A stretch of 64,000 nucleotides of DNA from the sequence record MT446414.1, one strand, 5' to 3'. This document shows positions 2,265 through 21,204 of this stretch, piece after piece. Positions within the stretch are counted from its first letter, which is position 1. Each line of letters starts with the position of its first letter. A program made the translations under genes and the position numbers. This DNA is from Escherichia virus TH43. Below the pieces are notes generated by a model. The model was not told where the DNA came from. It was given only the letters and a program-made list of their open reading frames with translations, and ran no database searches.

Positions 2265-2278
2265 GGAAGAGTTCAAGG

Positions 2279-3101: not shown

Positions 3102-3581
3102 ATGAAAGCTATTTTTGAAGGAAGGGAGTATGATGTTCCTGATTGGGTTAAATACATAGCCCGTGACTATGATAATCTGGTTTGGGCATATGGAGACGTA
3201 AGACCTGTGTTTAATGAAAACACTGGTAGTTGGTCTAACATGTCAAAATTGCCAGGATTTATTCGGGCACTTGGCTCTTCTAGTCGTCCTGTAGGTTTCG
3301 CTGCTGACTCACTTGTTGAGGTTGGTGTTGAAAAGGAAATAGACAAGCCAGAAACGATTTGGGTTTTATCTTCGAGTACCCCAATCAAAGGGAGTCGTGG
3401 GATTTCCTTCTATGTTGAACCGGTCGCTTACTTCAAAAATAAGCCAACCATCAACGCTCTGATGTTAAAGAACATTCCTTATTCACAAGTTGCTACTCTG
3501 TTAGATAATGGTACAGTGCTTGTTGAGAATAATGGGACAAATCAAATCTTTTATGATTTAGAAGAAAGGGTTTTGGAATGA
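3102..3581 (+). CDS. hypothetical protein
   Basis: ORF track. Confidence 0.5.
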   Translation: MKAIFEGREYDVPDWVKYIARDYDNLVWAYGDVRPVFNENTGSWSNMSKLPGFIRALGSSSRPVGFAADSLVEVGVEKEIDKPETIWVLSSSTPIKGSRGISFYVEPVAYFKNKPTINALMLKNIPYSQVATLLDNGTVLVENNGTNQIFYDLEERVLE

Positions 3582-3787
3582 GAATCTACAAATTAAGTCT
3601 ATGCTTTAGTGAATGGACTCACGACACAGAAGTAAAAGCAACTTATTACAAAGACCGTCCTACTCGTGGTCAGCTGATGCTAGATGGTATGGGTAGTGAT
3701 GCTTGTGATGTTGTTCTTCAATACGGAGCTGTTCAGGACTCTTCTCCCGGATATGTTTGGAAACTTGGGATTATTGAGGTTAAGTAA
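3578..3787 (+). CDS. hypothetical protein
   Basis: ORF track; ATGA overlap with previous gene. Confidence 0.45.
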   Translation: MRIYKLSLCFSEWTHDTEVKATYYKDRPTRGQLMLDGMGSDACDVVLQYGAVQDSSPGYVWKLGIIEVK

Positions 3788-4000
3788 ATGAAAGGTTTAG
3801 TATTAGGAAAACATCGATTTACTTTCCGTATCTCAGACAGGAATCCATACCCCACCAAGATTGAACCTTATGAGATTATCTCTGAAGTGTTTATCTGGCC
3901 TTGGCAAAGCATCTATGATGTTGCCCTTAAATCCAAGAAGAAGCTGATACCTGTTGGTATTTGGGCTGATGTTGATTTAATTAAAATCGAAAAGGTTTAA
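3788..4000 (+). CDS. hypothetical protein
   Basis: ORF track. Confidence 0.45.
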   Translation: MKGLVLGKHRFTFRISDRNPYPTKIEPYEIISEVFIWPWQSIYDVALKSKKKLIPVGIWADVDLIKIEKV

Positions 4001-4001
4001 A

Positions 4002-4322
4002 ATGATTAATGATAATACATTTAGGACTGGTAACGGAAACGAGATTAGTCCTGCTGAAGTGATTAAACGACACAGAACGCAGATGCTTATCCACTCCTAT
4101 TTGTATTATTGGTTGGATGACCCAATCTGGTCTGATGATAAATGGCAACAAGTGGCTGATGACTTAACCACTTTGCAAGAGATGTATCCTGAGCCTATTG
4201 GATTCTTTGATTCAGAGTTCAATGGGTGGAATGGCTCTACTGGTATGCATCTCCCTCATGACGAGCGTATTGCTTGTATGGCTACTGAAGTATATCGTTT
4301 ACATAAGGACAAATCTATCTGA
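4002..4322 (+). CDS. hypothetical protein with NAD-ligase domain Ia-like motif
   Basis: HSYLYYWLDDPIWSDDKW...LQEMYPE resembles the LigA N-terminal Ia domain (recalled). Confidence 0.45.
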   Translation: MINDNTFRTGNGNEISPAEVIKRHRTQMLIHSYLYYWLDDPIWSDDKWQQVADDLTTLQEMYPEPIGFFDSEFNGWNGSTGMHLPHDERIACMATEVYRLHKDKSI

Positions 4323-4500
4323 AATGTTTTAAATGTGAATCCACTCTTCTCCATCTGGACTCGAAAGTAATACGAGAGCTTGCTAAAGGCTCTCCGACGA
4401 AAGGGAAGAATAAGAAATTTGTCGAAGTTAAGGTTATAGGTACTCATTGTTCAGAGTGTAAATCCTGTAGCTACACGTATGAAGAACTTGGAGGTAGAAA

Positions 4501-5238
4501 ATGAATCGCAGAGAAACTCGTAGAGAAGCACGGAAAGCAGCTCGTCGTGGTGAACAGGTGACTAATAAAGGTAAACGTGAGTATCAAGAAGTTGTTCTTG
4601 CTAAGCCTGTAGTCCCTCAGAATCAGTTTCAATCCGAACTGCTCAATGCTATCAAGACTAAACAAGTAGTCTTTACGGATGCTCCTGCTGGCTGTGGTAA
4701 GACCTATGTTATCACAACAACAGTTATTGATGCTCTGAAAAGTGGAAAGATTCAAAAGATTATCCTAAGCCGGCCTGCTGTTGGTATGGGTAACTCACTT
4801 GGATTACTTCCCGGTGGATTGCGTGAGAAGTTCGAACCTTACCTGATGCCTATCGTTGATGTTATCACTCAGCGTTACGGTAAAGGCTTCTACGAGTGTC
4901 AAATTGGTAATGGTAACATAGAGTTCGTACCTCTGGAATACCTCCGTGGTCGTTCGTTCAATGATGCTATTGTGATTGTTGACGAGTTTCAGAACACCAC
5001 CCCTGATGAAGCATATTCTATTATGACTCGTCTTGGTGAAACCTCTCAGATGTTCTGTATGGGTGACACTAACCAGCACGACATGCGTGGTGAGAGTGGT
5101 TTGGAATGGGCTACTGACTTCATTGACAAGCACAACCTGTTTGAGTTTGCTGCTTTGGTTGATGGTGAGTCAGATGATATTGTTCGTTCAGGTTTCTGTA
5201 AAGCTATTGTTAAAGCAATGGAATCTGAAAAATCCTAA
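4501..5238 (+). CDS. phoH: PhoH-like ATPase
   Basis: Walker A GCGKTY; Walker B VIVDEFQN; PhoH-like LEYLRGRS block. Confidence 0.75.
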   Translation: MNRRETRREARKAARRGEQVTNKGKREYQEVVLAKPVVPQNQFQSELLNAIKTKQVVFTDAPAGCGKTYVITTTVIDALKSGKIQKIILSRPAVGMGNSLGLLPGGLREKFEPYLMPIVDVITQRYGKGFYECQIGNGNIEFVPLEYLRGRSFNDAIVIVDEFQNTTPDEAYSIMTRLGETSQMFCMGDTNQHDMRGESGLEWATDFIDKHNLFEFAALVDGESDDIVRSGFCKAIVKAMESEKS

Positions 5239-5239
5239 A

Positions 5240-5256
5240 CATAATGTATACTCCTT
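5240..5256 (+). promoter_or_regulatory. candidate phage-specific promoter motif (ATAATGTATACTCC)
   Basis: TAATGTATA-like motif 27 nt upstream of the 5283 gene. Confidence 0.35.
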
Positions 5257-5282
5257 AGTGTACACTGATATATTAAGGAGTT

Positions 5283-5600
5283 ATGATGACTGATAAGGCA
5301 AAACGTGATTATGCACAAGAACGAAGAACTGCAATCGCAAGGGGTGAAACCGGCGTTGGTAGCAAGAGCGGAGATGCTCAGCGCCACCGTGCACGTCGCA
5401 TCGTTGAAAAGCGCGATGGAAAAGCTGCTGTCCGAGGTAAAGATGTTGGACATAAACGATCAATCAAGTCGGGAGGTTCTAATGCGTCAAGTAACTTACG
5501 TGTTGAATCAGTCTCTGGAAATCGCTCGAACGGCGGCAAAAGTGGAGATCGTGCTGGAAAATCAGCAGGCGGTCGCAAAGGAGCTTTAAGCTCAAGTTAA
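5283..5600 (+). CDS. basic Gly/Ser/Arg-rich protein
   Basis: RBS AGGAG before ATG 5283; terminator follows. Confidence 0.5.
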   Translation: MMTDKAKRDYAQERRTAIARGETGVGSKSGDAQRHRARRIVEKRDGKAAVRGKDVGHKRSIKSGGSNASSNLRVESVSGNRSNGGKSGDRAGKSAGGRKGALSSS

Positions 5601-5604
5601 TATA

Positions 5605-5636
5605 AGGCTACCCATTTCGGGTGGCCTTTTCTTTTA
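5605..5636 (+). terminator. rho-independent terminator
   Basis: AGGCTACCC-ATTTC-GGGTGGCCT hairpin followed by a T-tract. Confidence 0.6.
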
Positions 5637-5656
5637 TATAATCTAAGGTAGTAAAT

Positions 5657-5908
5657 ATGTCTAAAGTAACTTATATCACTGTAACTGATTTCCTCCCTTC
5701 TCAGAATGTAACTGAGAGCTACACTTTTCCTGTAGAAAATGTTACAAGCTCTGTTGAAATGATTCAGTTTAACCCAACAACAGCTCGCACTAATGTAGCC
5801 CTTCGTGGTGCTAATGGTAAGTTCATCTCCTTCCGTGATAAGAGTGTTCCTAAGCGTATTGCTAAGTCTATTGAAAACCTGAAACCTTTCCCTAACTTTG
5901 GTGCATAA
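5657..5908 (+). CDS. hypothetical protein; paralog of the next ORF
   Basis: shared TARTNV.LRG..GKF.S.RD...NLKPFP. Confidence 0.5.
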   Translation: MSKVTYITVTDFLPSQNVTESYTFPVENVTSSVEMIQFNPTTARTNVALRGANGKFISFRDKSVPKRIAKSIENLKPFPNFGA

Positions 5909-6167
5909 TATGAAGATCAGCTTAATCCAAATCCGTGATCATCTTTTTAATGGTGATGCTCAGACTCATGATTACAAGGTTAATCAAGGACAACACCCTA
6001 CCAACCACCTGATTGGAGGGATTTCTTTATTGCCTAATAAAACAGCACGAACTAATGTAATGATTCGTGGTAAGGATGGAAAATTCCTTTCTTATCGTGA
6101 TCTTGAAATCTGTGCTGATGTTCGTACAGCTATGAACAATCTGAAACCTTTCCCGACAGTGGAGTAA
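5898..6167 (+). CDS. hypothetical protein; paralog of 5657..5908 (possible start 5910)
   Basis: shared TARTNV.IRG.DGKF.SYRD...NLKPFP. Confidence 0.5.
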   Translation: MVHNMKISLIQIRDHLFNGDAQTHDYKVNQGQHPTNHLIGGISLLPNKTARTNVMIRGKDGKFLSYRDLEICADVRTAMNNLKPFPTVE

Positions 6168-6170
6168 GTT

Positions 6171-6524
6171 ATGCCAGTACCTCAACGCCTAGAACGTCAC
6201 TGCGTTCTCAAATGGGACAATATTCATGACAACCTCTCCATTCAAGAGTTTCGTCAGTTTATTGAATTAACAGCGAAGATTAACCGAAACCAACCAGCTC
6301 GAAACTTTGTAGTGGTTAGTGATAAGTATCCTGAGTTGTATGAGCAGGTGTGGGGTATGAAACTTGCACAGGTTCAGAGAAACAGCAATGAACGAAGAGA
6401 AACTCGTAGACAGCGAGCAGAAGATATTCCAGCAGTCTTTTATGTGGATGAATTAACGGAATCCTATGAACAGTTAGATATTGTCGAGGATAACCAAGCG
6501 TTCACTGATTTAATATACCAATAA
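6171..6524 (+). CDS. hypothetical protein
   Basis: ORF track. Confidence 0.5.
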   Translation: MPVPQRLERHCVLKWDNIHDNLSIQEFRQFIELTAKINRNQPARNFVVVSDKYPELYEQVWGMKLAQVQRNSNERRETRRQRAEDIPAVFYVDELTESYEQLDIVEDNQAFTDLIYQ

Positions 6525-6537
6525 TTATAAGGAGTGG

Positions 6538-8385
6538 GTGATGGATAACCCTGATAAGTTACCTTTCATAACGGAGATGACAGTCGCTGATATAATCTCA
6601 AAGCAGGCGAAGCATGGCGTCAACTTCCACAGAAGAAACGCTCGGTGGTTTGTTCACCTTCTCAAAGAGATTATTGTCAATATTGATAAAGAACTGATTC
6701 CTCTCCTCCCCAAAATGCGGGTGGATGGTTCAACTTATTCGAAACCTTTTAAGAAGTCAGGTGCTTTACAGAAGTGGCCTCAGCTCTATTGTGACAGAGT
6801 TGGTCTTAAAAGAGAAGATATCGGTGGGGCGTTTACTTGCGTTGAGTATGTAGACTTCGACCCATCGAAAGATGCACGTATCAAAGAAGCCTTGATGGAC
6901 GAAGGCTTTATTCCTCCAGAGTGGAACACATCCAAGAAACCTTGGAATACTTACGAAATCCGTAAAGCGATGAAGAAGTATGGCACATATGCTGCTTGGT
7001 ATTCTGCTTGGATGCGGGGAAACGCTAAAGAAAAACAGACAGCTGAGATGATTGACGCTGACATTCGTCGGTTCTTGGATAAACACTTCCGTTATCACAC
7101 TGTCAATTACATGAAAGCGTACGTTAGTGGTTTAGGTTTGAATCCGAACAGGAAGAAGCCTGTAACCTTTGATGAAATTAAGAAAGCTTTAGCCATGTCA
7201 AACAAGTGGCCTACAGCTCCTACAAACCTCGAGGAGACGCTTGAAGAAGGTCTTGGGGGTGAGCTAGGGGGTGTGGGAGGTTTGCTTAAGAGACGTGTTG
7301 TAGCGGCTCACAGGCTTGGCTTGATTAATGGTCTTATAGACAAGGAACGAGAAGATGGTAAGTTGTCCGCCGAAGCTAATAGCTGCGCTACTCCGACATT
7401 TCGTTTTAAACACCGTATTGTTGTTAATATTCCTTCTCGCGGTTTGTTTGGTCACGAGTGCCGCAGTCTATTTCAGTCTGACTGTACCTCAAGTGATAGT
7501 AATCACAATCCTATCATCATTACCAACCATATCCCTGATGGGTGTTACGTACGAAAAGGTACAAACACTATCTACGAAGTGGGAAAACCGGGCAAGAAAG
7601 ACAAACCGATAGGTGCTCTGAAATATTACATACCTTCTGGTCATGAAGTATTTCTTGGTTATGATGGTTCAGGGTTAGAACTGCGTATGCTGGCTCACTA
7701 CCTTATTAAAGAGTGTCGTGAGATGTTGGCAGAGGCAGAACAAGAGAATAACCCAGCTAAGAAACGAGAAGCTGAACGCGGTTTAGCATCTGCCGTATTG
7801 TACAGAGATATTCTCTTACAGGGTGATATTCACTCCCATAACCAGAAACTTGCTGGCTTGCCTACCCGTGATAATGCTAAGACGTTTATCTACGCATTCA
7901 ACTACGGAGCTGGTGATGCTAAGCTAGGTAGTATTGTTGGTGGTGGGGCTGATGAAGGTTCTATAATGAGAGCTAGATTCTTAGCAGAGAACCCTTGTAT
8001 TGCAATCCTTATTGAACGTATGACAGAGAAAGCACAAAGTGGATACATCTACGGTGTTGACGGTCGTCGTATTACAATGAGACGTGACGGTACAGGAAAG
8101 GTCATGACACACAAAGCCTTAAATACGCTCTTACAGAGCGCTGGGGCGATTGTTATGAAGTATGCAATGCTATTCCTCAATAAATGGATTGAGCGTGATG
8201 GTGTTCGTTGTGCGAAGGTTATCGACATGCATGATGAAGGCCAGTTCACTGTACATCGTGAAGATGTTAACAAACTTCGTACTCTCACTGAAGAGTGTGT
8301 TCGTAAAGCGGGTGAATACCTCAAGATGGAATGTCCTCTTGCATCAGATTGTAAGATTGGGCTTAACTGGAATCATACTCACTAA
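6538..8385 (+). CDS. DNA polymerase, family A (Pol I-like)
   Basis: motif A DGSGLELRMLAH, motif B RDNAKTFIYAFNYGAG, motif C MHDE; RBS AGGAG. Confidence 0.85.
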   Translation: MMDNPDKLPFITEMTVADIISKQAKHGVNFHRRNARWFVHLLKEIIVNIDKELIPLLPKMRVDGSTYSKPFKKSGALQKWPQLYCDRVGLKREDIGGAFTCVEYVDFDPSKDARIKEALMDEGFIPPEWNTSKKPWNTYEIRKAMKKYGTYAAWYSAWMRGNAKEKQTAEMIDADIRRFLDKHFRYHTVNYMKAYVSGLGLNPNRKKPVTFDEIKKALAMSNKWPTAPTNLEETLEEGLGGELGGVGGLLKRRVVAAHRLGLINGLIDKEREDGKLSAEANSCATPTFRFKHRIVVNIPSRGLFGHECRSLFQSDCTSSDSNHNPIIITNHIPDGCYVRKGTNTIYEVGKPGKKDKPIGALKYYIPSGHEVFLGYDGSGLELRMLAHYLIKECREMLAEAEQENNPAKKREAERGLASAVLYRDILLQGDIHSHNQKLAGLPTRDNAKTFIYAFNYGAGDAKLGSIVGGGADEGSIMRARFLAENPCIAILIERMTEKAQSGYIYGVDGRRITMRRDGTGKVMTHKALNTLLQSAGAIVMKYAMLFLNKWIERDGVRCAKVIDMHDEGQFTVHREDVNKLRTLTEECVRKAGEYLKMECPLASDCKIGLNWNHTH

Positions 8386-8696
8386 TGATTGATATCAAAA
8401 CTGAAGTTAAATATAATCCCAAGCTCAATTTTGATGCTTGGGCAAAACGGATTCTTGATATACCTCTCCAAGATGTGGGTTACACACAAGTAACCTGCAC
8501 AGCAGAAATTCCTACTCATGGGTTACGTCCGTGGAAAGGCGTATCAGTTGTAGATGTGATAAAAGAGATGGTTAAAAGATGTGCCACTCAGTACGGAGGT
8601 GCATTAGAAGGTCGTCATTTCTACTACACCCGTAAGCAGGAGTCAACACAATACGAAACTTTCATTGAAGTTAACCTCTTTGTGGTGGAGAAGTAG
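8385..8696 (+). CDS. hypothetical protein
   Basis: ORF track; ATGA overlap with polymerase stop. Confidence 0.5.
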   Translation: MIDIKTEVKYNPKLNFDAWAKRILDIPLQDVGYTQVTCTAEIPTHGLRPWKGVSVVDVIKEMVKRCATQYGGALEGRHFYYTRKQESTQYETFIEVNLFVVEK

Positions 8697-8777
8697 TGAT
8701 TAGTTCAGTGGAAGAGTTGAATGGTATTACGAAATGAACTAGTCTTATTGATTAGTTCTTTTTAAGGAGACAAGGAA

Positions 8778-8912
8778 GTGGAAGAAGTAAAAAGTTCTGA
8801 ATGGTGCTTGAAGCAACAAAAGCTCGCACAGGATGAAGGTCGTTTTGAAGACGCTAAAGCTTATGGTGAATTATTTCAAACATGGGTAGAACGAGAGGAG
8901 AAAGCTAAATGA
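8778..8912 (+). CDS. small hypothetical protein (GTG start, 44 aa)
   Basis: manual translation; RBS AGGAGA upstream. Confidence 0.3.
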   Translation: MEEVKSSEWCLKQQKLAQDEGRFEDAKAYGELFQTWVEREEKAK

Positions 8913-9076
8913 TGGACCTGATTCGTAAACCCGCCCCAAAGTGGAACATCTATTACCAAGATTCCACTGGTAAATTTCATAACCAACTGGTTTATACTGA
9001 TGAAGAGCGAGATGAAGTCGTTGCTCAGATTGAAGCAGATGGTGGTACAGTTCTCAAAATCTACGAAAGGAATTAA
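8912..9076 (+). CDS. small hypothetical protein (54 aa)
   Basis: manual translation; TGATG overlap. Confidence 0.3.
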   Translation: MDLIRKPAPKWNIYYQDSTGKFHNQLVYTDEERDEVVAQIEADGGTVLKIYERN

Positions 9077-9078
9077 TA

Positions 9079-9321
9079 GTGACTCTAACCTCTAAAGAAT
9101 TAAAAGAAACTCTGGAAACAACCGAAGGTAAACAACATCTCCTTGCACAGATTCACTCTATGGGTAAGGATACCTTACGTCAAGCTTTGTATGAACTGAC
9201 TACTGCTGTTATCCAGATTGAAGCTAACGCTGAAGAAAGTTTGATTAAGTTAGAAGCTGCTGATGCAGAGATCAATGGATTGAAGGTTCGTATTGCCGAG
9301 CTGGAAACACAAAATAAATAA
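9079..9321 (+). CDS. coiled-coil protein (GTG start)
   Basis: ORF track; terminator directly downstream. Confidence 0.45.
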   Translation: MTLTSKELKETLETTEGKQHLLAQIHSMGKDTLRQALYELTTAVIQIEANAEESLIKLEAADAEINGLKVRIAELETQNK

Positions 9322-9345
9322 GCTACCTTCGGGTGGCTTTTCTTG
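9321..9345 (+). terminator. rho-independent terminator
   Basis: AGCTACC-TTCG-GGTGGCT hairpin plus T-tract. Confidence 0.6.
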
Positions 9346-9359
9346 TATAAGGGGCTGGT

Positions 9360-9752
9360 ATGAAGATTGGCTTAGATTATGACGACACTTTTACAGCGGA
9401 CAAAGAGATGTGGACACATATCATAGGACTTATGAAGTCCCGTGGTCATGATGTTCGTATCGTGACTTACCGATTCGCTGAACCTAATGGGTATACAAAT
9501 GAAGAACTACTGGCAGATGCTGCTAGTCTAGATATCCCGGTTATCTTTTGCAATGGTGTTCAGAAGGATTCTGTTACCCAGAGCTTAGGTTTCTTTGTGG
9601 ATGTTTGGATTGATGACTTCCCTGTTGGTATTCCTAAAATGGACCACCTAGAAGGGATGCTGAAGGGCGTAAGACTTAACGACCTTAGAGCAGCACCTCC
9701 AGTAGAAATAGCTTCTCCTGTGTACTCTGAAGAGCCTCTGGTGATACGATGA
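9360..9752 (+). CDS. HAD-superfamily phosphatase-like protein
   Basis: HAD motif I LDYDDTF and motif IV WIDDF. Confidence 0.5.
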   Translation: MKIGLDYDDTFTADKEMWTHIIGLMKSRGHDVRIVTYRFAEPNGYTNEELLADAASLDIPVIFCNGVQKDSVTQSLGFFVDVWIDDFPVGIPKMDHLEGMLKGVRLNDLRAAPPVEIASPVYSEEPLVIR

Positions 9753-9928
9753 AAAAGTTCCTATGCTGGTCTATTGCCATTGCTCTATTTCTTTGGGTGA
9801 TGGATGCTCTTGGAGATTACAGTAAAGAAGATTGCGAGACTCGAATCTCAAAAGAGTTTAAATCAGAGACCAAGTGGGTTGACGGTCGCTGTTACATCAA
9901 GGATTGGGGGAGAGTCTTATCAAGATGA
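9749..9928 (+). CDS. small secreted/membrane protein (59 aa)
   Basis: manual translation MKKFLCWSIAIALFLWVMDA...; ATGA overlaps. Confidence 0.35.
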   Translation: MKKFLCWSIAIALFLWVMDALGDYSKEDCETRISKEFKSETKWVDGRCYIKDWGRVLSR

Positions 9929-10104
9929 AGAAATACAGCGTATGGTTTAATGAAGAAGAAGAGGGTTTTGATGAAGTTGGTGGTTGGGTTAATATCCTAA
10001 ACACAGACGACATAGAAGAGGCCGAGAAATGCGCCCTAAACTACAACTCTGGATATTATGAAAGAAATTGGGAGCACGATGAAATACTACAAAGTAGTTT
10101 ATAA
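9925..10104 (+). CDS. small acidic protein; paralog of 10672..10839
   Basis: shared VW..E..E...GGW..IL.TDD.EEAE....NY.YYE. Confidence 0.45.
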   Translation: MKKYSVWFNEEEEGFDEVGGWVNILNTDDIEEAEKCALNYNSGYYERNWEHDEILQSSL

Positions 10105-10264
10105 GTTAAATTTATACCTTCGTGGAACAGGAAGTCTTGAAGTGTCAGGGTGTAAAGTTGTAGAAGAAGAAAACCCTATTAAAGCTGTTGAGAAGGTTGA
10201 AGAGATTATCAAACTTGAAGAAATAGGAAGTTTTGAATTAGTCGATATTGAGGAAGTTAAATGA
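10079..10264 (+). CDS. small acidic protein
   Basis: ORF track 10058..10264; internal ATG 10079. Confidence 0.4.
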   Translation: MKYYKVVYKLNLYLRGTGSLEVSGCKVVEEENPIKAVEKVEEIIKLEEIGSFELVDIEEVK

Positions 10265-10485
10265 TCTACGTTCACACTTACACGATTGGAAAGAAGACAG
10301 TTGACCGAGTTCATACTGATGAATCCGAAGCTCAGGCTTCTCTAGCGGTTCTAGGTGGCAAGGTTAAAAATTATGTAGAGGCTAGTAAACCAGCTAGTAG
10401 CCCACCTGTTCTAGAGTATCTCGGAACAAATAATCCAGTCACAGCGATGACTATCATCAATAATAAACAGAGGGAGTTGTTGTAA
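10261..10485 (+). CDS. hypothetical protein
   Basis: ORF track. Confidence 0.45.
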   Translation: MIYVHTYTIGKKTVDRVHTDESEAQASLAVLGGKVKNYVEASKPASSPPVLEYLGTNNPVTAMTIINNKQRELL

Positions 10486-10688
10486 TGTCTAATATTTACG
10501 TCACACAAACTGTAGGACATATCAGTGATTACAAATACCAAGTGATTGCTGATCGGCATGAACTACTGACTTTTGTTGACCTTATGGCTCTGAAAGAAGA
10601 GGTTGATAAGCTGGTGTCAGATGAACAATCCCGACTCTTACAAGAGTCTCTCAGCGGAGATTATATCTGCGATGGCTGTACTATCTAA
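10485..10688 (+). CDS. hypothetical protein
   Basis: ORF track. Confidence 0.45.
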   Translation: MSNIYVTQTVGHISDYKYQVIADRHELLTFVDLMALKEEVDKLVSDEQSRLLQESLSGDYICDGCTI

Positions 10689-10839
10689 AAGGTTTAAAGT
10701 CTGGCTAGACGAAGGGGCTGAATATCCTGAAGGTTTTGGCTGGAGAGTGATTCTGGAAACAGACGATAGGGAGGAGGCTGAAACGAAAGCCGAATCCTTC
10801 AACTACTCATATTACGAGGACACGTACGAGAATGGCTGA
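10672..10839 (+). CDS. small acidic protein; paralog of 9925..10104
   Basis: ORF track 10603..10839; internal ATG 10672. Confidence 0.4.
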   Translation: MAVLSKRFKVWLDEGAEYPEGFGWRVILETDDREEAETKAESFNYSYYEDTYENG

Positions 10840-11452
10840 AGTTTACTTTGCAGGTGATGGTCACCTAGGCCATCGTAACATCTGTAATTTTAGAAAGAAG
10901 TTTAGCAGTATTGAAGAACATGACAAAGCTATCCTAGCAGCTTTTGACCATGTTACTAAACGTGATAAAACTTTCTTTACAGGTGATTGGGTGTTTGAGA
11001 AATACGCACTTGATATTATCGCTGAAGTGAAAGGAGAGAAACATCTTGTCCTAGGAAACCATGACAGATTAGAACTTCTCCCTGATATGATGAAAGTCTT
11101 TAGACACATCAGTGGTGATTATAAGTACAAAGAGTTTTGGGTAACTCATATTCCTATTCACTCTGATGAAATGAGAGGGAAGTATAATATCTATGCTCAT
11201 ACTCATAATTCTACTATTAAAGATTGGAGATACTTTTGTACTTCTATGGAACAAATTGATTATAGAGCTGTATCTCTGCAAGAGATTAGAAAAGAACTAG
11301 AAAGTAGGAAAGAGTGGGTAGCTTCTTTATTACAAAAAGATTATCCAATTACCAGCGAAGTACAAGAGATGTTAAGTAAACAAGCTGAATCTAACTCACC
11401 TTTTCAGAGAACAGTAGAACAAACTAGCTTTAAAGGTCTTTTAGAATGGTAG
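10832..11452 (+). CDS. calcineurin-like metallophosphoesterase
   Basis: GDGHLGH and LVLGNHD metal-binding motifs. Confidence 0.65.
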   Translation: MAEVYFAGDGHLGHRNICNFRKKFSSIEEHDKAILAAFDHVTKRDKTFFTGDWVFEKYALDIIAEVKGEKHLVLGNHDRLELLPDMMKVFRHISGDYKYKEFWVTHIPIHSDEMRGKYNIYAHTHNSTIKDWRYFCTSMEQIDYRAVSLQEIRKELESRKEWVASLLQKDYPITSEVQEMLSKQAESNSPFQRTVEQTSFKGLLEW

Positions 11453-11724
11453 AAGTTCTTGTTTTTAAGTTAAGTTAATTAGTTTTCTTTTGATTTTAAT
11501 AGAGAATCAAAGTCCTAGGAGTCCTCAACCTAAATCAAGGATTTCCTTAATTCTCTATTTTTATCTCGCAGGTGTCTCCTGCCCTTCGGTACTTGCAAGG
11601 GTTACGATGATTGCCCAATATACAAGCCTGCAATAGCTTTACTAGCTATACCATATATACATTACTACTTACTGTTATCTACTACCAAAAAGGTTATAGT
11701 ATAATAGAACCTTATCTGTATAGG

Positions 11725-11745
11725 TGTAATGTATATAGTATACCA
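11725..11745 (+). promoter_or_regulatory. candidate phage-specific promoter motif (GTGTAATGTATATAGTATACC)
   Basis: best copy of the TAATGTATATA motif, 50 nt upstream of the SSB-like gene. Confidence 0.4.
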
Positions 11746-11794
11746 ACCGCTCAAAGAGAGCAACAATCTTAAATTTATATAAGGAAATATTAAT

Positions 11795-12535
11795 ATGTCT
11801 ATGATCCCTGAACTGTCTGTATCCCGTAAATCCAACTACGATGTAATCCCTGATGGCGAGTACGAAGCACGCATTGTTCGTGTAGTAGGTTTAGGTGTTC
11901 ACAATCGTGACCCTTGGATTGACCCTAAGACCAAAGCAGTTACTCCTAAGAACCCAGCTTTCCGTATGGACTTGGCATTTGAACTGATTGGCGTTGACGC
12001 GACTGGTACAGATAATGATGGTAAGGCATTGGACCCACGTCCGGCTTGTCAGTTTAAATCCTTCGATGTAAACCCACGAGCTAAGAACTCTGGTATTCTG
12101 AACCTAATTAAAATGATCGACCCAAGTGTTCAAGCACTGAAAGGTGATTTGGGTTGGTTCAAAGATATGCTGCTTGGTCAGCCTGTCAACATTCTGGTTA
12201 ACTCTTACACCAACAAAGCTGGTGAGAAGAAAAACTCTATCAAGAGCATCACCCCCATCCCAACTAAGTATCGCGATGCTGTAGGTGCTCCTCGTAGTGA
12301 GTTGATCTTCTTCGAACCGTATGCTGAAACTGACGCTAACTTGGCTGCTTATCAAGCTATGTTCCCATTCCAACGTAACCTTCTGACCCAAGCTAACGAT
12401 GCTAAAAACATTCCTCTGGCTGGTCGTGAGGTTACTCGCGCTTCTGACACTGAACAGAAAGACGCGACTCCAAGTATCCCTACTATTAATGAAGAGCCGC
12501 AATCTACCTTTGAAGAAGATGACAGCCCTTTCTAA
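11795..12535 (+). CDS. candidate single-stranded DNA-binding protein with acidic C-terminal tail
   Basis: C-terminus FEEDDSPF; strong RBS; sits after a 340 bp noncoding region. Confidence 0.5.
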   Translation: MSMIPELSVSRKSNYDVIPDGEYEARIVRVVGLGVHNRDPWIDPKTKAVTPKNPAFRMDLAFELIGVDATGTDNDGKALDPRPACQFKSFDVNPRAKNSGILNLIKMIDPSVQALKGDLGWFKDMLLGQPVNILVNSYTNKAGEKKNSIKSITPIPTKYRDAVGAPRSELIFFEPYAETDANLAAYQAMFPFQRNLLTQANDAKNIPLAGREVTRASDTEQKDATPSIPTINEEPQSTFEEDDSPF

Positions 12536-12557
12536 TGAATCTCTCCTTGTAATAGCT

Positions 12558-12583
12558 TAGCCACCTTCGGGTGGCTTTTTTCG
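12558..12583 (+). terminator. rho-independent terminator
   Basis: AGCCACC-TTCG-GGTGGCT perfect hairpin plus TTTTTT. Confidence 0.65.
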
Positions 12584-12594
12584 TTGGAGTTAAA

Positions 12595-12942
12595 ATGGAA
12601 AAGCTTCAAAACAATATCGGCTTCTTAGTCTTTACAGCCCTTGTATTCTTTGGTGGGATGAAGTTTGAGCAATATCGAAATGATAGTAACACTCTTGACC
12701 AAGAGAAGAAACAACAAGAGATTGAGATTGAGAGAGCTAAGGCTGCTGATGAAGTAGCTCAGAAAGTTCTTACCAGTATAACCAACTGGAAGAAGAACAC
12801 AGAAACTGTTTATAAAGAGATGCATTATGAGAAGACTAAGCCAGTTTTTTACAATGTGTGCGCTAGCGATGAGTATGTCAGCTTGTTCAACGAGCGACAA
12901 CAGCAGGCAGCTAATGCCCTTACCAACAAACCTAAAAGCTGA
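12595..12942 (+). CDS. i-spanin-like protein (N-terminal TM helix, periplasmic coiled coil)
   Basis: TM IGFLVFTALVFFGG then a charged coiled-coil region. Confidence 0.45.
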   Translation: MEKLQNNIGFLVFTALVFFGGMKFEQYRNDSNTLDQEKKQQEIEIERAKAADEVAQKVLTSITNWKKNTETVYKEMHYEKTKPVFYNVCASDEYVSLFNERQQQAANALTNKPKS

Positions 12943-13087
12943 GTGTGATGTTGATCTCCCTTTGCTTCAGAGTGCACAGGGAGTGGCATTTGCAACGACA
13001 TTAGAGTGGTATCAGGATAATTATACAACCTGTGCTGCTAATCATAATGGTTTACTGAAAGCTCTCAAGGAGAGAGGAATACAATGA
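12854..13087 (+). CDS. o-spanin-like secreted lipoprotein candidate
   Basis: signal peptide MCALAMSMSAC; Pro-rich with Cys residues; starts inside 12595..12942 in a different frame. Confidence 0.4.
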   Translation: MCALAMSMSACSTSDNSRQLMPLPTNLKAECDVDLPLLQSAQGVAFATTLEWYQDNYTTCAANHNGLLKALKERGIQ

Positions 13088-13308
13088 TCAGAGCGGAACT
13101 TACAATACCAGAAGGTGTTACTCAATTTCATGCAGTATGGGAACATAATAATCAGATTTGGGGACGAACATTCAAATTCTTCATCAACGATGGTGAGTCT
13201 TATTGGGCTTATTATATAGCAGAAGATGATGAATGGGATAGAATTAGGCAACCTAGTGATCACATCCCTTGTCCTGACACAGCAATGTATTTGTTCTGTG
13301 TAGTTTAA
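13084..13308 (+). CDS. hypothetical protein
   Basis: ORF track. Confidence 0.45.
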   Translation: MIRAELTIPEGVTQFHAVWEHNNQIWGRTFKFFINDGESYWAYYIAEDDEWDRIRQPSDHIPCPDTAMYLFCVV

Positions 13309-13332
13309 TATAAAATAAGTTAAGGACGACTT

Positions 13333-13983
13333 ATGAAGAAGAAGACAACACCCACACGCTATCGTATTCATGGCATTCCTATTAAATATTATCCAACCTT
13401 CGATGAATTCTATCGAGAGAACTGGAAAGTTGTGCATCGCTATTTCATGTATGACATTAAAGATTATCACGAAGCAGAGGATGTTGCTCAGGAAGTGTTA
13501 CTGAACGCTTGGCGTTTTGTGTTCGCAAAGCAAGAAGAACTTCTGCTCACTGATGAAAAAGATATTGAACACATGACCTATCGTGTTAAGAATATCATCT
13601 GGTCTATTCGTTCTAATCGTCAGACAGTTGGAGATCGACGTATCTATTCTATTCCAGAGGCTGATATGTTTAGACCTCCTGAGATGAACTCATGGGAAAG
13701 TCCTTTAGAGATTGCGATGGATAAGCATGACTCTACTGGAGACCCATTCTTGGAATCTAGAATCTTTTTCTTCTTCCAAGACTTAAGTGATATTATGGAT
13801 ACCAAGAAAATGGCAAGCATGTTCTCTATGCTCTTCCTTGGAATACCTCATGATCATATTCAGCAGCAGTTAGGAATTTCACACGGAACCTTCTATCGCC
13901 GATATGCAGAGAATCGTGATCTGTATGAAGCTGTAGTAGAGAAGCACTTTGATAAAGAAGATCTTCAAGGGATGATTCAATAA
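13333..13983 (+). CDS. phage-encoded sigma factor (sigma-70 family, ECF-like)
   Basis: region 2-like RYFMYD...[14 protein letters not shown]; region 4 HTH-like [21 protein letters not shown]. Confidence 0.65.
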
Positions 13984-14579
13984 TGAGTAAACCATTAGTA
14001 GTAATTCTGAATGGACCTCCGGGTTGTGGTAAAGACACAATCGCTAATGCTTGGCTAGAATTCACTAAAGAGAACATCGAATTTAAGCCACATATAAAGG
14101 CTTTTAAGGAGCCTATGTACCGAGTTGCTGCTGCTGCATTAGGTATTCCTATTGACGAGTTCATGGAGCTGTATAGCGACCGTGAGTGGAAAGAACGAAG
14201 CCGTCCTGAATGGGGCGGTAAGTCAGTTCGAGATTTAATGATTGCAACTAGTGAGAGCTACTTGAAGCCAATGTTTGGTGACACCTGTATGGGTAAATTG
14301 GCTGTTAGTAGTATCAAACAACAACTGTTAGGACAGAAAGATGTTATCGTCTTCTCTGATGGTGGATTCAAAGCAGAGGTTTCAGAACTGGAAGAACAAT
14401 TCCATGTTCAAGTAGTTCAGATTCTTCGTGATGGTTGCACTTTTGAAGGAGACTCTCGTTCTTACATCGAAGGCAGTCAGAGAAACACATATTACCTAGT
14501 AAACGATTCTACTGTAGAAGATGCAATAGACTATTTAAATTGGATTGTTGTACGGACACGGAGAGATCTCTATGTCTGA
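13983..14579 (+). CDS. P-loop kinase, deoxynucleoside monophosphate kinase-like
   Basis: Walker A GPPGCGKDT. Confidence 0.55.
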   Translation: MSKPLVVILNGPPGCGKDTIANAWLEFTKENIEFKPHIKAFKEPMYRVAAAALGIPIDEFMELYSDREWKERSRPEWGGKSVRDLMIATSESYLKPMFGDTCMGKLAVSSIKQQLLGQKDVIVFSDGGFKAEVSELEEQFHVQVVQILRDGCTFEGDSRSYIEGSQRNTYYLVNDSTVEDAIDYLNWIVVRTRRDLYV

Positions 14580-15393
14580 TGTAATTTATCCTGAAGTAGC
14601 AATTGTGGATGCAGATGTTCTGCGATATGAAGTCGGTGCTCTTACACAAGAGCATCCTTTTCTAGACACAGGTCGTGTTCCAGTTGATTATGGATTCTTG
14701 ATTGAACGACTTCAACATAAAATAGATGTAATCATTGCAAGGTCTGGTTGCGAGAAAACAATCTTTTACTTCAGCGAAGGTGGTAATTTTCGGTTTGATA
14801 TTGCTAAGCAGCAAGGTTATAAAGCTAATCGACCACCGGGAGAAAGACCTCACCACTGGCAAAATGTTAGTGATTACATTAAAGAGAATTATGAATTCGT
14901 TGAAGTTTTTGGGAGAGAGGCAGATGACGCCTTAGCTGAAAGACAGAGACGTGATAAGAACACTATCATTTGCACCCGTGATAAAGATTTGTTAATCACC
15001 CCCGGATGGCATTACCGTTGGGCTTGCGGGGAGAGACAGAAAGAAGTACCTCCTCACTATGTACCAGAGGAAGTAGCATGGCAGAACTTCTTCTATCAGA
15101 TGTTGATTGGGGACAGTACAGATAACATCCCCGGATGTGGTGAGAAAGTTGAAATGATGTGGGGCGGTAACTTAGTTATGCGTCGTAAGGGTATTGGTAG
15201 CAAAGCTGCTATCAAGCTTATTGAGAAGGTATTCGATAAGTGGACTCTTTATCATATTATACGAATGGAATACTATAAGAGGTTCGAGGAAGAAGCAGAA
15301 GCTAAGATGTTAGAAAATGCTCGATTGCTCTTCGTTGGACAAGCTGAAGGCGACCTCTTTGATTGGTCGTGGTTAGATAAATCTTGGGAATAA
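14572..15393 (+). CDS. 5'-3' exonuclease / flap endonuclease
   Basis: FEN motifs GYKANR, READDAL, TRDKDLL, GDSTDNIPG; RBS GGAGAG. Confidence 0.75.
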   Translation: MSDVIYPEVAIVDADVLRYEVGALTQEHPFLDTGRVPVDYGFLIERLQHKIDVIIARSGCEKTIFYFSEGGNFRFDIAKQQGYKANRPPGERPHHWQNVSDYIKENYEFVEVFGREADDALAERQRRDKNTIICTRDKDLLITPGWHYRWACGERQKEVPPHYVPEEVAWQNFFYQMLIGDSTDNIPGCGEKVEMMWGGNLVMRRKGIGSKAAIKLIEKVFDKWTLYHIIRMEYYKRFEEEAEAKMLENARLLFVGQAEGDLFDWSWLDKSWE

Positions 15394-15403
15394 GGATATT
15401 ATA

Positions 15404-15595
15404 ATGGGTAAATTTGACTATCGTTCGTATGATGAAAATTCCTCTAATCGTGAGTCTCGTAAAGACCAGAAGATTAAACATCAAGCATTTGATCGTCGTA
15501 CTGGACGTATCCCTCGTGCTGAAAAAGAATCACATCGTATTAACAAACGTATTTGGGAAGATGCTGATATGGATGTAGGTTATGGCGAAAGCTGA
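15404..15595 (+). CDS. small basic protein
   Basis: ORF track. Confidence 0.4.
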   Translation: MGKFDYRSYDENSSNRESRKDQKIKHQAFDRRTGRIPRAEKESHRINKRIWEDADMDVGYGES

Positions 15596-15986
15596 GAAAA
15601 CTAGATGCTCCGGTCAGTGGACTGAAGCACGATATAACTCCTTCATCAAATCAGGGATTCGTTCTCTGACTAGAAAATGGAAGCCTATGTTTGACTCTCT
15701 TAAAGAGGCTCAGACAGAGCGTAAGATCAACCCTAAAACTGGCAAGCTGGCAATGCACTATAAGTGTGCCTTGTGTGGTAATGACTCTCCTCTGAAAGAG
15801 GTAGCTGTCGACCATATAGAACCTATTGTTCCAGTGGACCATGAAGCTACTTGGGATGAAATTATCGAGAGAGCTTTGGTTGAAGTAGATGGCTTTCAAG
15901 TCTTGTGTAAAGAACCTTGTCATAAGATTAAAACTAAGGAAGAGAATGATGCAAGACGAGAATTTAAAAAATCTAGAGACTCCTGA
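15582..15986 (+). CDS. HNH endonuclease
   Basis: CALCG...VDHIEPIVPV...CHKIKTKEEN. Confidence 0.65.
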   Translation: MAKAEKTRCSGQWTEARYNSFIKSGIRSLTRKWKPMFDSLKEAQTERKINPKTGKLAMHYKCALCGNDSPLKEVAVDHIEPIVPVDHEATWDEIIERALVEVDGFQVLCKEPCHKIKTKEENDARREFKKSRDS

Positions 15987-16248
15987 AGAAAGAGAAGTCT
16001 TTGAATCTATGAATAAGGAAAACACCTATGATCAAGTATCTACGAAACAAGTTCTTCGCTTTAGCTATCGTAATTGGAGAGGTGAAATTGCAGACCGCTC
16101 CGTTGTTCCTATACGAACCTCAGTTGCTTCTTCCCGTTATCATAATGGGGGCAAACCTTGTTGGATAATGACCGCTTGGGACAACGATAAGAATGACATT
16201 AGAGAGTTTAAGCTCTCTGATATTATTAAGTATTATGATTTAATCTAG
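15946..16248 (+). CDS. hypothetical protein
   Basis: ORF track 15889..16248; internal ATG after RBS AAGGAAGAGA. Confidence 0.45.
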   Translation: MMQDENLKNLETPEEREVFESMNKENTYDQVSTKQVLRFSYRNWRGEIADRSVVPIRTSVASSRYHNGGKPCWIMTAWDNDKNDIREFKLSDIIKYYDLI

Positions 16249-16256
16249 GAGAACAA

Positions 16257-16523
16257 ATGGATTTTAGTTCAGCACTTGTTAAAGTAAAAGAAGGGAAAAA
16301 GATCACCCGCTCTGGTTGGAATGGTGCAAACCAGTTCGTCTTTAAAGCAGGTGGTTATGAAGTAGAGGAAGCTCGACCGGGTTCTCTTTATGAAAAAGCT
16401 GATATTGTAGGTCAATTCTATATTGCCCCTCATTTAGTTTTAAAGAATGCTCAAGGTATTATACAGCCCGGATGGGTTCCATCTCAAGGCGACCTGTTTG
16501 CAAACGATTGGGAGATTTTATGA
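16257..16523 (+). CDS. DUF2829-like small protein (candidate Tad2-like anti-Thoeris sponge)
   Basis: MDFSSALVKVKEGKKITRSGWNG...GW.PSQGDLFANDWEIL pattern, recalled as DUF2829-like. Confidence 0.45.
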   Translation: MDFSSALVKVKEGKKITRSGWNGANQFVFKAGGYEVEEARPGSLYEKADIVGQFYIAPHLVLKNAQGIIQPGWVPSQGDLFANDWEIL

Positions 16524-16718
16524 TTGACTTCGAAGAAGAAAATTGGGATGTATGATGAATTCGATGGATTCTAGTAGCCTTGGGTTTTCTCTTTGTTCTA
16601 ATAACTTCTATTAAGAGCAAGGACACACCCCTACTGTACAGTAGATATGGCAAGAGAAGTGGAAAAGGTTTGATATTTAAGTGTCGAATCTTTTCTTATT
16701 TATATCTAGAAATAAAGA

Positions 16719-16752
16719 AGCCCCCTTCCTTTTCAGGTTGGGGGCTTTTCTC
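16719..16752. terminator. bidirectional rho-independent terminator at the convergent junction
   Basis: AGCCCCC...GGGGGCT hairpin with T-tracts on both strands. Confidence 0.6.
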
Positions 16753-16754
16753 GT

Positions 16755-19700
16755 TTACTCTTTAGCTCGAACTCTAACCCGGAGTTTAGCTTGACGCTTA
16801 CTTCTCTCCAACTTGTCAGACAGAGAACCACGTTTGACTTTCAACTCTCCCTCGTCATTATACTTCTCCAAGAACTGTAAATACTCTTGTCGAGTAGTTG
16901 TCTTGTAAGAAGGAATCTTAACATCAGGATTCTCTTCAATCACACGTCTAATCTTCGCTACATCATCCCGCCCTAAAAGTTTCCCTTTAGCTTGTTCAGC
17001 AGTAGAACCAAAGATTTTCTCCAGTGCTCTAGATTTGTTACCACCCGCTGAAGCAGCACCAAGTTTCGCAATAGCAGAGTAATCGTCAGCACTAAACCAA
17101 GCCACTGGATTATCTCCATATTGTTTCTTGTTCTCCGCAGCAGTTTGTAAAGCACGCACAAAGCGACGGTTATTACCAGCTTTGTCAGCACCATGAACCC
17201 TATCTAGAACTTCTGCTACACTAGCCAGCTCCTGCAAGTCTTTCCCTTCGATAAAAGCTTTCTCTGCTTTGTTAGCAAAGTCATCTTCCTGCTTCTTAAT
17301 ACTTTCCAGTATATCAGAGGAGGCTTGAGACCTTTCATCTTCCGGCAACGCCGAACGAACTTTCTCCATTTCCAACTCTTCATCCTGAAGTTTCTTCAAC
17401 TCAGAATCTACCTTCCTAGCATCTTCGATAGCTTTCGAAGTATCTGCATCCACCTCTACCTTCCCATCCATATCACCAGTTGCCTTAGCAATATCTTTCT
17501 CGATTGGTGTCATCTTCTCAAAATCCTTAGCAAACTTTGAAATATCCGATTCAATACGAGAACGAGCATTCTGGTGCTCAGTAGGAGTCATAGGTTTCTC
17601 CAGAAGAGAGTAACGGTTATCCATATAAGAACCTGCAAAGATTTCTGCATCTTCTTTAGGAATCCCTTTATCCTCCATAGAACGCATCAGGCGCTTATGA
17701 ATGTCATCACGTTGGCGTTGTATTGCCATGCGATCGTTCTCTGCTTCCTGAGCTTCTTTGAGCTTCTTGTCACGTTGTACACGGGAATCAATGTCGTATT
17801 TACGGTTCATCTCTTCCGCCTGTTCGTACATCTTATTCCACTTAGCTTCTCGAGCATCTTCTTCCGCTTCAGTGAGACGACGCTTACGGTCAATGTAATC
17901 ACTTTCTGCGTTGTGGATACGTTCGATAATACTACGGAAACGCTCCGGTGGCACAGGAGAGTTCTTATCGTGGTGAGCTGCTAACTGTTTCAGTGTACGA
18001 CCTTCCTGAGACTCACGTACCGACTCTGGTAAATCTTTCAACAGGTTCTCCATCTCCGATTTCTGAGCCGCTATAGCTTCGAGAGACTGTCTTTCTGTCT
18101 CTACTGCTGCCTTGGCATCACTACGAGCTTTAGCCCTGTTACGGAGCGTCTCAAGACGTTCTTGACGTGCTTGCAAATGTTTAGCTGCTGCTTCGTACTG
18201 AGAGTTCTTATTAGCTTTGTTGAACATGTTAACTTCACGGTTATATGTGTTAATGAAGCCATCCCATATATCCTTCATCTGTCCCACTTCCAAAGCATCT
18301 TCCCTTCCAGCCTTCTCTGAAGCTTTAAACTTCCCATCTACAAAGTCTTCCATCAACTTACGCATAGCATCTTTTTGAGCTGGACGTAATGGCTCTGCAT
18401 CAAGAAGTAAATTGATTTCGCTGTGTAACTCTTTCTTCTGGTCAACCAGCTTAGGAGCATCAGCTTTATCAAGCTTCTTATTCTCTGCAAGAGCTTCTTC
18501 ATACATCCTATTAAATTCATCATCACGTTGTTTCTGATACAGACGTTCAGACCTACGCTTCAGTGAGTCTAGACTAGTCACGTTCCCACCAATACCTTTC
18601 TCCTCAGCACGTAATGCCTTGGTAGCAATATCAGAAGGTAGACCACGTTCCTTAACCCAATCAGCAAACGAAGAACGAACACGTTGTGACTTAGCAGCAG
18701 CAATACCCTGTTGAGAAGCAAGTTGGTTACGAGCCATCTCAGCATGACGTTCAGCATTGTTGGCTTGGTCTTCCTGACGGATACGACGCATCAACTCTTT
18801 CGGGTCACCTTTATAAGAAAGGAAGTTCTCAGCTGTGGCTTTAGCCTTAGCACCTGCCGTATACAGAGAACGAGCAAAGCGATCTGCACGATCTTTAGTA
18901 GCTTGACGGGCAGCACTTGACATAGCAGCCAGACGCTCTATTCCAGTAGCTGGTTTAACAGGCTCAGGCTCAACCTCAGGAGCTTTAGGAGCACGGGTAG
19001 GTAATGGCTCGGCTTGAACGATAGGCTCCTCAGGAACGCTCTCAGCAGCCTTGCTAGCCTCTTCTGCTTCTTGACGTTTACGAGCTTCTGCAACAGCACG
19101 ACGCTGAGCAACTAAATCCCTTGCGGTAGTAACTGGTTCTTGTGGAACTGGCTCTGGAGTTGGTTCTTCCTGAACCCTGTTAGCTTCGGCTTCTTGACGT
19201 CTAGCTTCAGCTTCCTTCAAAGCACGTCTCTGTGCGACCAAATCACGAGCAGTTAAAGGAGAGGTTTCTGGAGAGGAAATTTCTTCCGTCACAGTAGTAG
19301 CAGAAGGCTCCCGAACCGGTTCGATTTCCGTGTCATTTTGAGTCTTAAATTTAATGTCATCAACTTCAGGTTCTTTCTCCATCGCAGCACGGGCTTCATC
19401 AGCCTGAGCACGAGCACGAGTTACTTCCATATCACTACGAGCAAGAGAACGAATAGCTTCACTGTTAGCAGCCTGCTGGCTTTCACGTTGAGAGCGAGCA
19501 CGGTCAGAACGGAAACGGTTAAGAACATGCTTAGCAGCACCAAGAGGATTCTTAATCAGAACTGGAGGAGCAGCTTCTTTAAAACCATCAGCAGTCAGAG
19601 AAGTCCAACCACGGTCTTGGTTACTCATTAACTTAGCTGTGTTATTCAGAGTGAAAGCATCTTGGATTGGGTTGAAACCTTCAGGCATTCCTTTAAGTTT

Positions 19701-21173: not shown

Positions 21174-21204
21174 AATTTCTCCTTATAAATAAAAATGTCC
21201 TACC

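Follow-up and report, generated by a model that had tools for sequence, protein, structure and literature searches.

The AATGTA motif of a phiEco32-like coliphage as a known phage sigma factor promoter element, with a candidate antisense copy

Introduction

A short motif of the form TAATGTA(T)ATA recurs upstream of genes on both strands of Escherichia virus TH43 (MT446414.1), and one of its copies lies at 11725-11745 of the 64,000-nucleotide stretch of DNA that was analyzed here and that is called the window. This locus raises the question of whether the copies are promoters for a sigma factor encoded by the phage itself, as the original prediction proposed. In phiEco32, six promoters dependent on the sigma factor gp36 were mapped, at genes 6, 13, 26, 40, 58, and 68 (Lavysh et al. 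2022, PMC8948821). These promoters have one conserved element in common, tAATGTAtA, with the core AATGTA centered at -11.5, and transcription starts 6-8 bp downstream of it (PMC8948821); the same consensus is also quoted in PMC4331800 and PMC4281155. In Supplementary Table S3 of PMC8948821, P6 reads TAATGTAgA, P13, P26, P40, and P58 read TAATGTATA, and P68 reads aAATGTATA, and the same six promoters were found in NJ01, ECBP2, KBNP1711, SU10, and 172-1 (PMC8948821). The original prediction had pointed to a AATGTATA-type element of phiEco32-like phages, and this agrees with the published consensus (PMC8948821).

Results

The window and its relatives

The window was found to come from a phiEco32-like coliphage, with TH34 and Bas88 as the closest relatives (~94% identity). 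The 5-kb piece around the flagged site matched 98 genomes of phiEco32-group coliphages (Gordonclarkvirinae). The identity was 90-94% to Suseptimavirus-like phages and ~75-83% at the DNA level to phiEco32, with which synteny was complete; in the stretch of ECBP2 that was compared, the flanks of three sites were 90-99% identical to those of the window. The relatives were drawn from the GenBank phage collection, and IMG/VR yielded 5 related loci. The window is oriented as the reverse complement of the phiEco32 map, and synteny with phiEco32 divided it into three regions:

1-16765, plus strand, middle genes 68 down to 27
16755-47232, minus strand, late genes 26 down to 4
47388-64000, plus strand, early genes from the other genome end

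Genes 69 to ~99, gene 79 among them, fall outside the window. The A+T content of the genome was 58%, and the non-coding fraction of the window was roughly 14% on a coding map for which open reading frames had to reach 55 aa. The window spans the point where the two ends of the phiEco32 genome meet: its segments 47233-47760 and 48371-49016 matched the left end (positions 144-423) and the right end (~76.4-77.0 kb) of phiEco32. The source record must therefore be circularly permuted or joined with respect to the linear phiEco32 map. The early region also carries a tRNA-Arg with the anticodon TCT at 58731-58806 (plus strand), which is present in phiEco32 as well. It was the only match of the window to Rfam at gathering thresholds (58731-58803).

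Occurrence, placement, and conservation of the motif

All seven strings in which the recurrent motif had originally been seen were present in the window, offset by 1-3 nt from the positions first assigned to them. Recurrence was borne out by six of the seven; the remaining site, at 55262, was not a canonical match. The consensus W-AATGTA-K-A was matched exactly at five of these sites, of which 209 reads AAATGTATA, 5242, 11727, and 21210 (minus strand) read TAATGTATA, and 46263 (minus strand) reads TAATGTAGA. The sixth, at 38274-38282 on the minus strand, reads TAATGTAct, in which the core AATGTA is whole and the last two bases are off consensus. An additional exact TAATGTATA that the original list did not contain was found on the minus strand at 11656-11664. 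The core was intact in the six listed sites and in this additional one, and their 9-mers showed 0-2 mismatches.

The exact 9-mer TAATGTATA was observed 4 times against 0.71 expected, a count reached by none of 100 dinucleotide shuffles. The degenerate form WAATGTAKA was observed 8 times against 3.4 expected, and 4 of 100 shuffles reached this number. The bare hexamer AATGTA, with 40 copies, was not enriched in non-coding DNA, so the raw frequency of the motif by itself was only modest evidence. The comparison of motif frequency with base composition, which had been proposed together with the original prediction, thus turned out in favor of the exact 9-mer, which exceeded expectation, and not of the bare hexamer. 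All four exact 9-mers (binomial P = 4e-4) and six of the eight WAATGTAKA matches (binomial P = 2e-4) were located in non-coding DNA, and the six canonical sites faced the same way as the genes downstream of them. Across Kuravirus, Suseptimavirus, and Nieuwekanaalvirus (up to 18 genomes), the 9-mer was invariant while its flanks diverged; departures were confined to the P13-type element, in the window and in Bas88, and to the P6-type element, in EP335. Placement and conservation outweighed the counts and were the decisive evidence for the motif.

Several other matches were rejected. A second TAATGTAGA at 46321-46329 (minus strand), in the end of the upstream open reading frame and ahead of a terminator, was a chance match; it was not conserved, with TGATGTAGA in SU7 and a different sequence in phiEco32. 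A promoter-like arrangement, TGGTAGTAG-N14-AAATGAATA, was present at ~41880 (minus strand) at the junction of the portal gene and gene 9 and was rejected as chance because it overlaps the start codon and only Bas88 among five genomes shares the sequence. The intergenic TAATGTA copies at 48281 and 61173 (both minus strand) had neither the rest of the motif nor a -35 box.

Six sites at the positions of mapped phiEco32 promoters

Comparison of the upstream regions revealed that the six canonical sites were positional orthologs of P68, P58, P40, P26, P13, and P6. The distances from motif to start codon were equal or near-equal in the window and phiEco32; in both, 59 nt separate the motif from the ATG at P40, 33 nt at P13, and 11 nt at P6. 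When AATG was set at -14 to -11, the 9-mer occupied -15 to -7 and the start fell 7 nt past the 9-mer. The predicted +1 was a purine at every site. The promoters were assigned as follows:

209-217, plus strand, P68-type middle promoter, AAATGTATA, predicted start ~224, gene 255-584
186-197, plus strand, P68-type -35 box, TGGTAGTAGATA; 9-mer and box invariant in 6 genomes
5242-5250, plus strand, P58-type middle promoter, TAATGTATA, predicted start ~5257, gene 5283-5600
11727-11735, plus strand, P40-type middle promoter, TAATGTATA, predicted start ~11742, gene 11795-12535
21210-21218, minus strand, P26-type late promoter, TAATGTATA, predicted start ~21203, gene 16755-21173 (1472 aa)
38274-38282, minus strand, P13-type late promoter, TAATGTAct, predicted start ~38267, gene 37494-38240
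46263-46271, minus strand, P6-type late promoter, TAATGTAGA, predicted start ~46256, 9-mer identical to that of phiEco32 P6

Among the window and 8 related genomes, the P58-type 9-mer and the 21 nt downstream of it hardly varied, whereas the sequence upstream was unrelated between lineages. The P40-type element, which was invariant in 18 genomes, is predicted to give gene 11795-12535 a 52-nt leader. The P13-type element reads TAATGTATA in phiEco32 and TAATGTATT in Bas88, and the gene behind it, 37494-38240, belongs to the SU10-adaptor family (Pfam PF24175). Searches of Pfam, PHROGs, and PDB sequences assigned no function to the genes downstream of P40, P6, P58, and P68, nor specifically to 11795-12535 and 45784-46251, and the labels “SSB-like” and “terminase small subunit” used originally were unsupported. 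The P6-type element ends 11 nt ahead of the ATG at 46251, and its predicted start, ~5 nt before the ATG, falls past the AGGAG ribosome-binding site, a geometry equal to that in phiEco32. With a start after the ribosome-binding site, the P6 transcripts would be nearly leaderless for the downstream gene.

The phage sigma factor and its co-factor

The prediction that an ECF-like sigma factor is encoded in the window was confirmed by the following gene, the product of which showed a weak match to Pfam Sigma70_r2:

13333-13983, plus strand, phage sigma gene (gp36 homolog), 81% identity to gp36 / PDB 9M7Y chain F

Contact of gp36 with A-14 and A-13 involves N95 and S91, that with the base paired to T-12 involves S94, and that with G-11 involves E79 and H80 (PMC12276001). 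W90 and Y83 stack at the fork, and R84 binds the backbone (PMC12276001). On P68, cryo-EM revealed in 2025 that R187 and Y186 of the C-terminal domain reach G-37 and the base paired to A-34 (PMC12276001). Mutation of the base-specific contacts between gp36 and AATG abolishes transcription (PMC12276001). Residues E79, H80, Y83, R84, W90, S91, S94, N95, Y186, and R187 were all identical in the window protein. Since all contact residues are kept, an equal promoter specificity is expected. The proposal that the motif copies serve as promoters for the phage sigma factor was thus upheld both by the location of six sites at mapped gp36-promoter positions and by the conserved contact residues of the sigma factor. 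Judged from its sequence, the motif is the gp36 promoter element already described for phiEco32-like coliphages, and the original finding appears correct, not new.

Sigma-70 is inhibited by the co-factor gp79, which raises transcription from gp36 promoters 3-4 fold. No homolog of gp79 was present in the window; homologs were found in 97 relatives, including Bas88 with 80% identity, in a genome segment that lies outside the window.

The -35 regions and the terminator-like hairpins

Bases upstream of the motif were compared in the six canonical sites, in 11656-11664 (minus strand, the antisense site), and in 55263. A-34 was present in all eight sites, and T-38 was present in six of seven. At position -37, five sites had G (P68, P58, P6, the antisense site, and 55263), whereas P26 and P13 had A and P40 had T. 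At the P68-type site, G-37 and A-34 agree with the cryo-EM contacts on P68, the one promoter for which -35 contacts are published. The box TAAGACC at -38 to -32 was common to P26 (21235-21241, minus strand) and P13 (38299-38305, minus strand), and the TGGTAGTAGATA box was common to P68 and the antisense site. The P68 and P26/P13 boxes were invariant between genera except for one base in NJ01, whose P26 has TAATACC. P6 draws its -35 region from a terminator hairpin, of which it uses the 3' arm (TGGGAGG), and the -35 regions of the P58- and P40-type promoters were not conserved between lineages. Because the C-terminal domain of gp36 reads the -35 region (PMC12276001), gp36 promoters are not strictly single-element, and the older “single-element” label is only partly right. 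The two shared -35 boxes suggest a sequence basis for the promoter classes, of which no discussion was found in the papers examined.

A terminator-like hairpin was coupled to each late promoter:

38315-38336, minus strand, terminator-like hairpin just upstream of P13
46287-46305, minus strand, terminator-like hairpin overlapping the P6 -35 region
21197-21231, minus strand, terminator-like hairpin of 35 nt, then ATTTTTATTT (T-run), enclosing the P26 -10 element

With its -10 element inside the hairpin, P26 would initiate a transcript without the 5' arm of the hairpin, and transcripts arriving from upstream could end at 21197-21231.

The composite site at 55262

The one listed site that departs from the consensus lies in an early-region spacer between the homologs of gene 117 and gene 116:

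55240-55279, plus strand, non-canonical composite site, TGGTAGT, 16 nt, TAATG-ACTG-TATATAG

Positions 55263-55271 read TAATGACTG, and the contiguous 9-mer was not matched. The site resembles the motif only when 3-4 nt are looped out, as TAATG, a gap, and TGTATATAG. In 9 genomes, neither GGTAATG nor CTGTATATAGACC varied, and the stretch between the two differed by a 1-nt indel. When TAATG is placed at -15 to -11, a TGGWAG box lies at a -35-like distance, and the site has AATG, G-37, and A-34, which are all the bases with a published specific contact; it is without T-10 and A-9, both of which are invariant in the six mapped promoters. The element is located in the loop of a hairpin (CAGAGGT/ACCTCTG), the stem of which showed one compensatory change between lineages. 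The site may act as a weak promoter for gp36, as a hairpin in RNA or DNA, or in some other way, and it is not to be counted as a canonical instance of the motif. A conserved TTGACA is present ~55 nt upstream of the 55240-55292 element.

An antisense copy of the motif beside P40

The additional exact 9-mer is accompanied by a -35 box of the P68 type:

11656-11664, minus strand, candidate antisense/non-coding RNA promoter, TAATGTATA, predicted start ~11649
11676-11687, minus strand, antisense-site -35 box, TGGTAGTAGATA (TTGGTAGTAGATA), the P68 box at P68 spacing

This site is 62 bp from the P40 element, to which it is divergent, within the 343-bp spacer 11453-11794. It points away from gene 40 and is antisense to the upstream middle genes. 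The mean identities of its parts among 18 genomes (14 distinct sequences) were as follows:

-10 stretch, TAATGTATATA (11 nt), 100%
-35 box, 96%
spacer between -10 and -35, of constant length, 58%
sequence upstream of the -35 box, 63%

Such a pattern of conservation in the alignment is the footprint expected of a two-element promoter. The antisense copy also occurs in phiEco32, at +36704, where it brings the number of exact TAATGTATA copies in the 77.5-kb genome to five. The published set of six gp36 promoters does not include it in any of the papers examined, and by location it falls outside the canonical set, as it faces away from gene 40. Literature searches on a seventh or antisense promoter, and on transcriptomes of Kuravirus, yielded no relevant paper. 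The 11656-11664 site is probably an antisense or non-coding RNA promoter that has gone unreported, and we consider it reasonably likely that this promoter is functional.

The conserved non-coding block 11498-11653

The DNA that such a promoter would transcribe is itself conserved:

11498-11653, minus strand, highly conserved non-coding block, first ~150 nt of the predicted antisense transcript

The identity of this block to phiEco32 was 92%, compared with 82% for the gene 40 coding sequence, 77% for the sigma coding sequence, and 73% for the DNA between the two promoters, and it was the most conserved non-coding stretch of the neighborhood. No Rfam family was matched by the block; within 11350-11850, all hits had E-values of at least ~0.9 and scores far under the gathering thresholds. 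The consensus fold had an energy of -40.1 kcal/mol on the minus strand (structure conservation index 0.86) versus -29.4 kcal/mol on the plus strand (0.77). A hairpin starting from the predicted +1 was kept by compensatory changes across lineages, with the arms AUAGCU/AGCUAU, AUAGUU/AACUAU, AUAGA/UCUAU, and AGAGUUA/UAACUCU. The common phiEco32 type of this hairpin contains a G-U pair, in place of which the other strand would have a C-A mismatch. Covariation was assessed for this first hairpin only, the rest of the block being invariant.

On the plus strand, a hairpin followed by TTTTTAT is present at the far end of the block (~11498-11570). This arrangement is plausibly the terminator of the upstream operon; the hairpin was not called by the terminator scan, having too few G-C pairs. 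If it does terminate transcription, 11570-11650 lies between the terminator and P40 and would be transcribed from the minus strand only. The central module of the block was different in ECBP2, MN05, myPSH2311, and one IMG/VR contig, so the element is a mosaic. In the more distant phages 7-11 and J3S, the spacer is short and the divergent arrangement is missing.

One possibility, to which we give slightly less than an even chance, is that 11656-11664 is a seventh gp36-dependent promoter, conserved in all phiEco32-subgroup phages, from which the spacer of genes 41 and 40 is transcribed into a structured non-coding RNA with a length of ~150-170 nt. A discrete functional non-coding RNA from the block is a similarly tentative proposal. 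If it exists, this RNA would be complementary to the hairpin and T-run that close the upstream operon, and its possible roles would include regulation of upstream transcript 3' ends or of transcription across the junction, or the priming of replication. The antisense copy beside the conserved non-coding stretch may be the only potentially unreported part of these observations.

Discussion

The motif very probably serves the middle and late promoters of a phiEco32-like phage as their -10-like element. The window itself contributes to this reading the identity of the motif, its orthologous positions, its conservation, and the contact residues of the sigma factor. In the proposed mechanism, the core of the host RNA polymerase would carry the phage sigma factor encoded at 13333-13983. 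The N-terminal domain of the sigma factor would read A-14, A-13, T-12, and G-11 of (T)AATGTA(TA) and open the DNA from -11, and its C-terminal domain would touch a weak -35 region at about -38 to -34 with the sequence T-R-R-N-A. Transcription would start ~7 nt past the 9-mer. The P68, P58, and P40 types would drive the middle genes, on the plus strand here, and the P26, P13, and P6 types would drive the late virion genes, on the minus strand here, with each late promoter restarting transcription inside a terminator-like hairpin or directly behind one. A gp79-type co-factor, encoded outside the window in relatives, would shut off sigma-70 and stabilize the gp36 holoenzyme. For the sigma dependence, start sites, timing, and effect of gp79, this scheme draws on the work on phiEco32.

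Three other explanations were weighed against it. The copies might be chance A+T-rich words in A+T-rich intergenic DNA, without a common function. The A+T content of 58%, the 40 unenriched copies of AATGTA, and the 4 of 100 shuffles that reached the WAATGTAKA count are all in keeping with this explanation, and some copies are clearly of this kind (46321-46329 and the 41880 region). However, none of 100 shuffles reached four exact 9-mers, the exact copies were all intergenic (P = 4e-4), the six canonical sites were co-oriented with their genes, and the motif was invariant in up to 18 genomes in which its neighbors vary. The orthologous sites of phiEco32, moreover, were mapped experimentally (PMC8948821), and coincidence is thus a very improbable source of the set as a whole. 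A structural role, in which the motif is mainly part of a hairpin (a terminator or processing site) or the binding site of another phage protein, would fit the P26-type element inside its terminator-like hairpin, the self-complementary TATATA, and the 55262 element in a hairpin loop with its one compensatory change between lineages. It does not fit P58, P40, P13, and P6, where no conserved hairpin encloses the motif, and it is at odds with the base-specific contacts of gp36 with AATG, the mutation of which abolishes transcription (PMC12276001); we regard this role as equally improbable.

The sites could also be promoters of the host sigma-70, or dual sigma-70 and phage promoters, in which the motif would be a -10 box in extended or variant form. 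An overlap of sigma-70 promoters with some middle promoters was proposed in the SU10 genome paper (PMC4281155), and two weak 9/12 pairs were found near the 5242 site. These two were the only such matches, and the original remark that none of the sites resembles a sigma-70 pair therefore stands; at six of the seven sites, no TTGACA/TATAAT-like pair of at least 9/12 was found at a spacing of 16-18 bp. AATGTA, in addition, is without the final T of TATAAT, and dependence on gp36 in vitro and the inhibition of sigma-70 by gp79 have been published (PMC8948821). Recognition by sigma-70 is accordingly very unlikely, if marginally less so than the other two explanations, and the phage sigma factor is preferred as the reader of the motif.

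The gp36 promoters of phiEco32 and those of the window are alike in the 9-mers TAATGTATA, AAATGTATA, and TAATGTAGA, in the six orthologous positions, in the sigma family and its DNA-contact residues, and in the P68 -35 box with G-37 and A-34. They differ in the P13-type element, TAATGTAct in the window, and the window belongs to a lineage closest to Bas88, TH34, and SU7. The late promoters of Salmonella phage 7-11 and GAP52 depend on the sigma factor SaPh711_gp47 and have the consensus GTAAtg-N16-aCTA (PMC8948821). Like the window, these phages encode an ECF-like sigma factor and have promoters at equivalent genome positions, and one of the 7-11 promoters precedes gene 48 of that phage, the homolog of gene 40. 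Unlike the window, they use a different, bipartite consensus, have no gp79 homolog and no middle class, and are without a long conserved spacer or a divergent promoter upstream of the gene 40 homolog. GTAAtg-N16-aCTA had one chance match in the window, at 44066 inside a gene, and none at the candidate sites. In the middle promoters of T4 (AsiA/MotA), a phage factor likewise disables region 4 of sigma-70 and a second factor supplies specificity (PMC12276001); there, the host sigma-70 is kept and an activator is bound to the MotA box at -30, whereas here the sigma factor is replaced.

The transcription scheme of phiEco32 thus carries over unchanged. The leads beyond the known promoter set are the antisense promoter and its block, the -35 box classes, and the 55262 element. 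If the antisense promoter and its transcript are real, a non-coding RNA and a divergent promoter pair would be added to a model system of sigma replacement. For annotation, the value lies in the placement of six sigma-dependent promoters, with predicted starts, on a lineage in which the SU7 genome paper saw neither these promoters nor the sigma factor. The “promoter” features of the SU7 record (MZ342906.1) are BPROM/PhagePromoter predictions and do not overlap gp36-type elements; according to the SU7 paper, no alternative sigma factor had been identified, yet ORF 29 of SU7 is the homolog of gp36.
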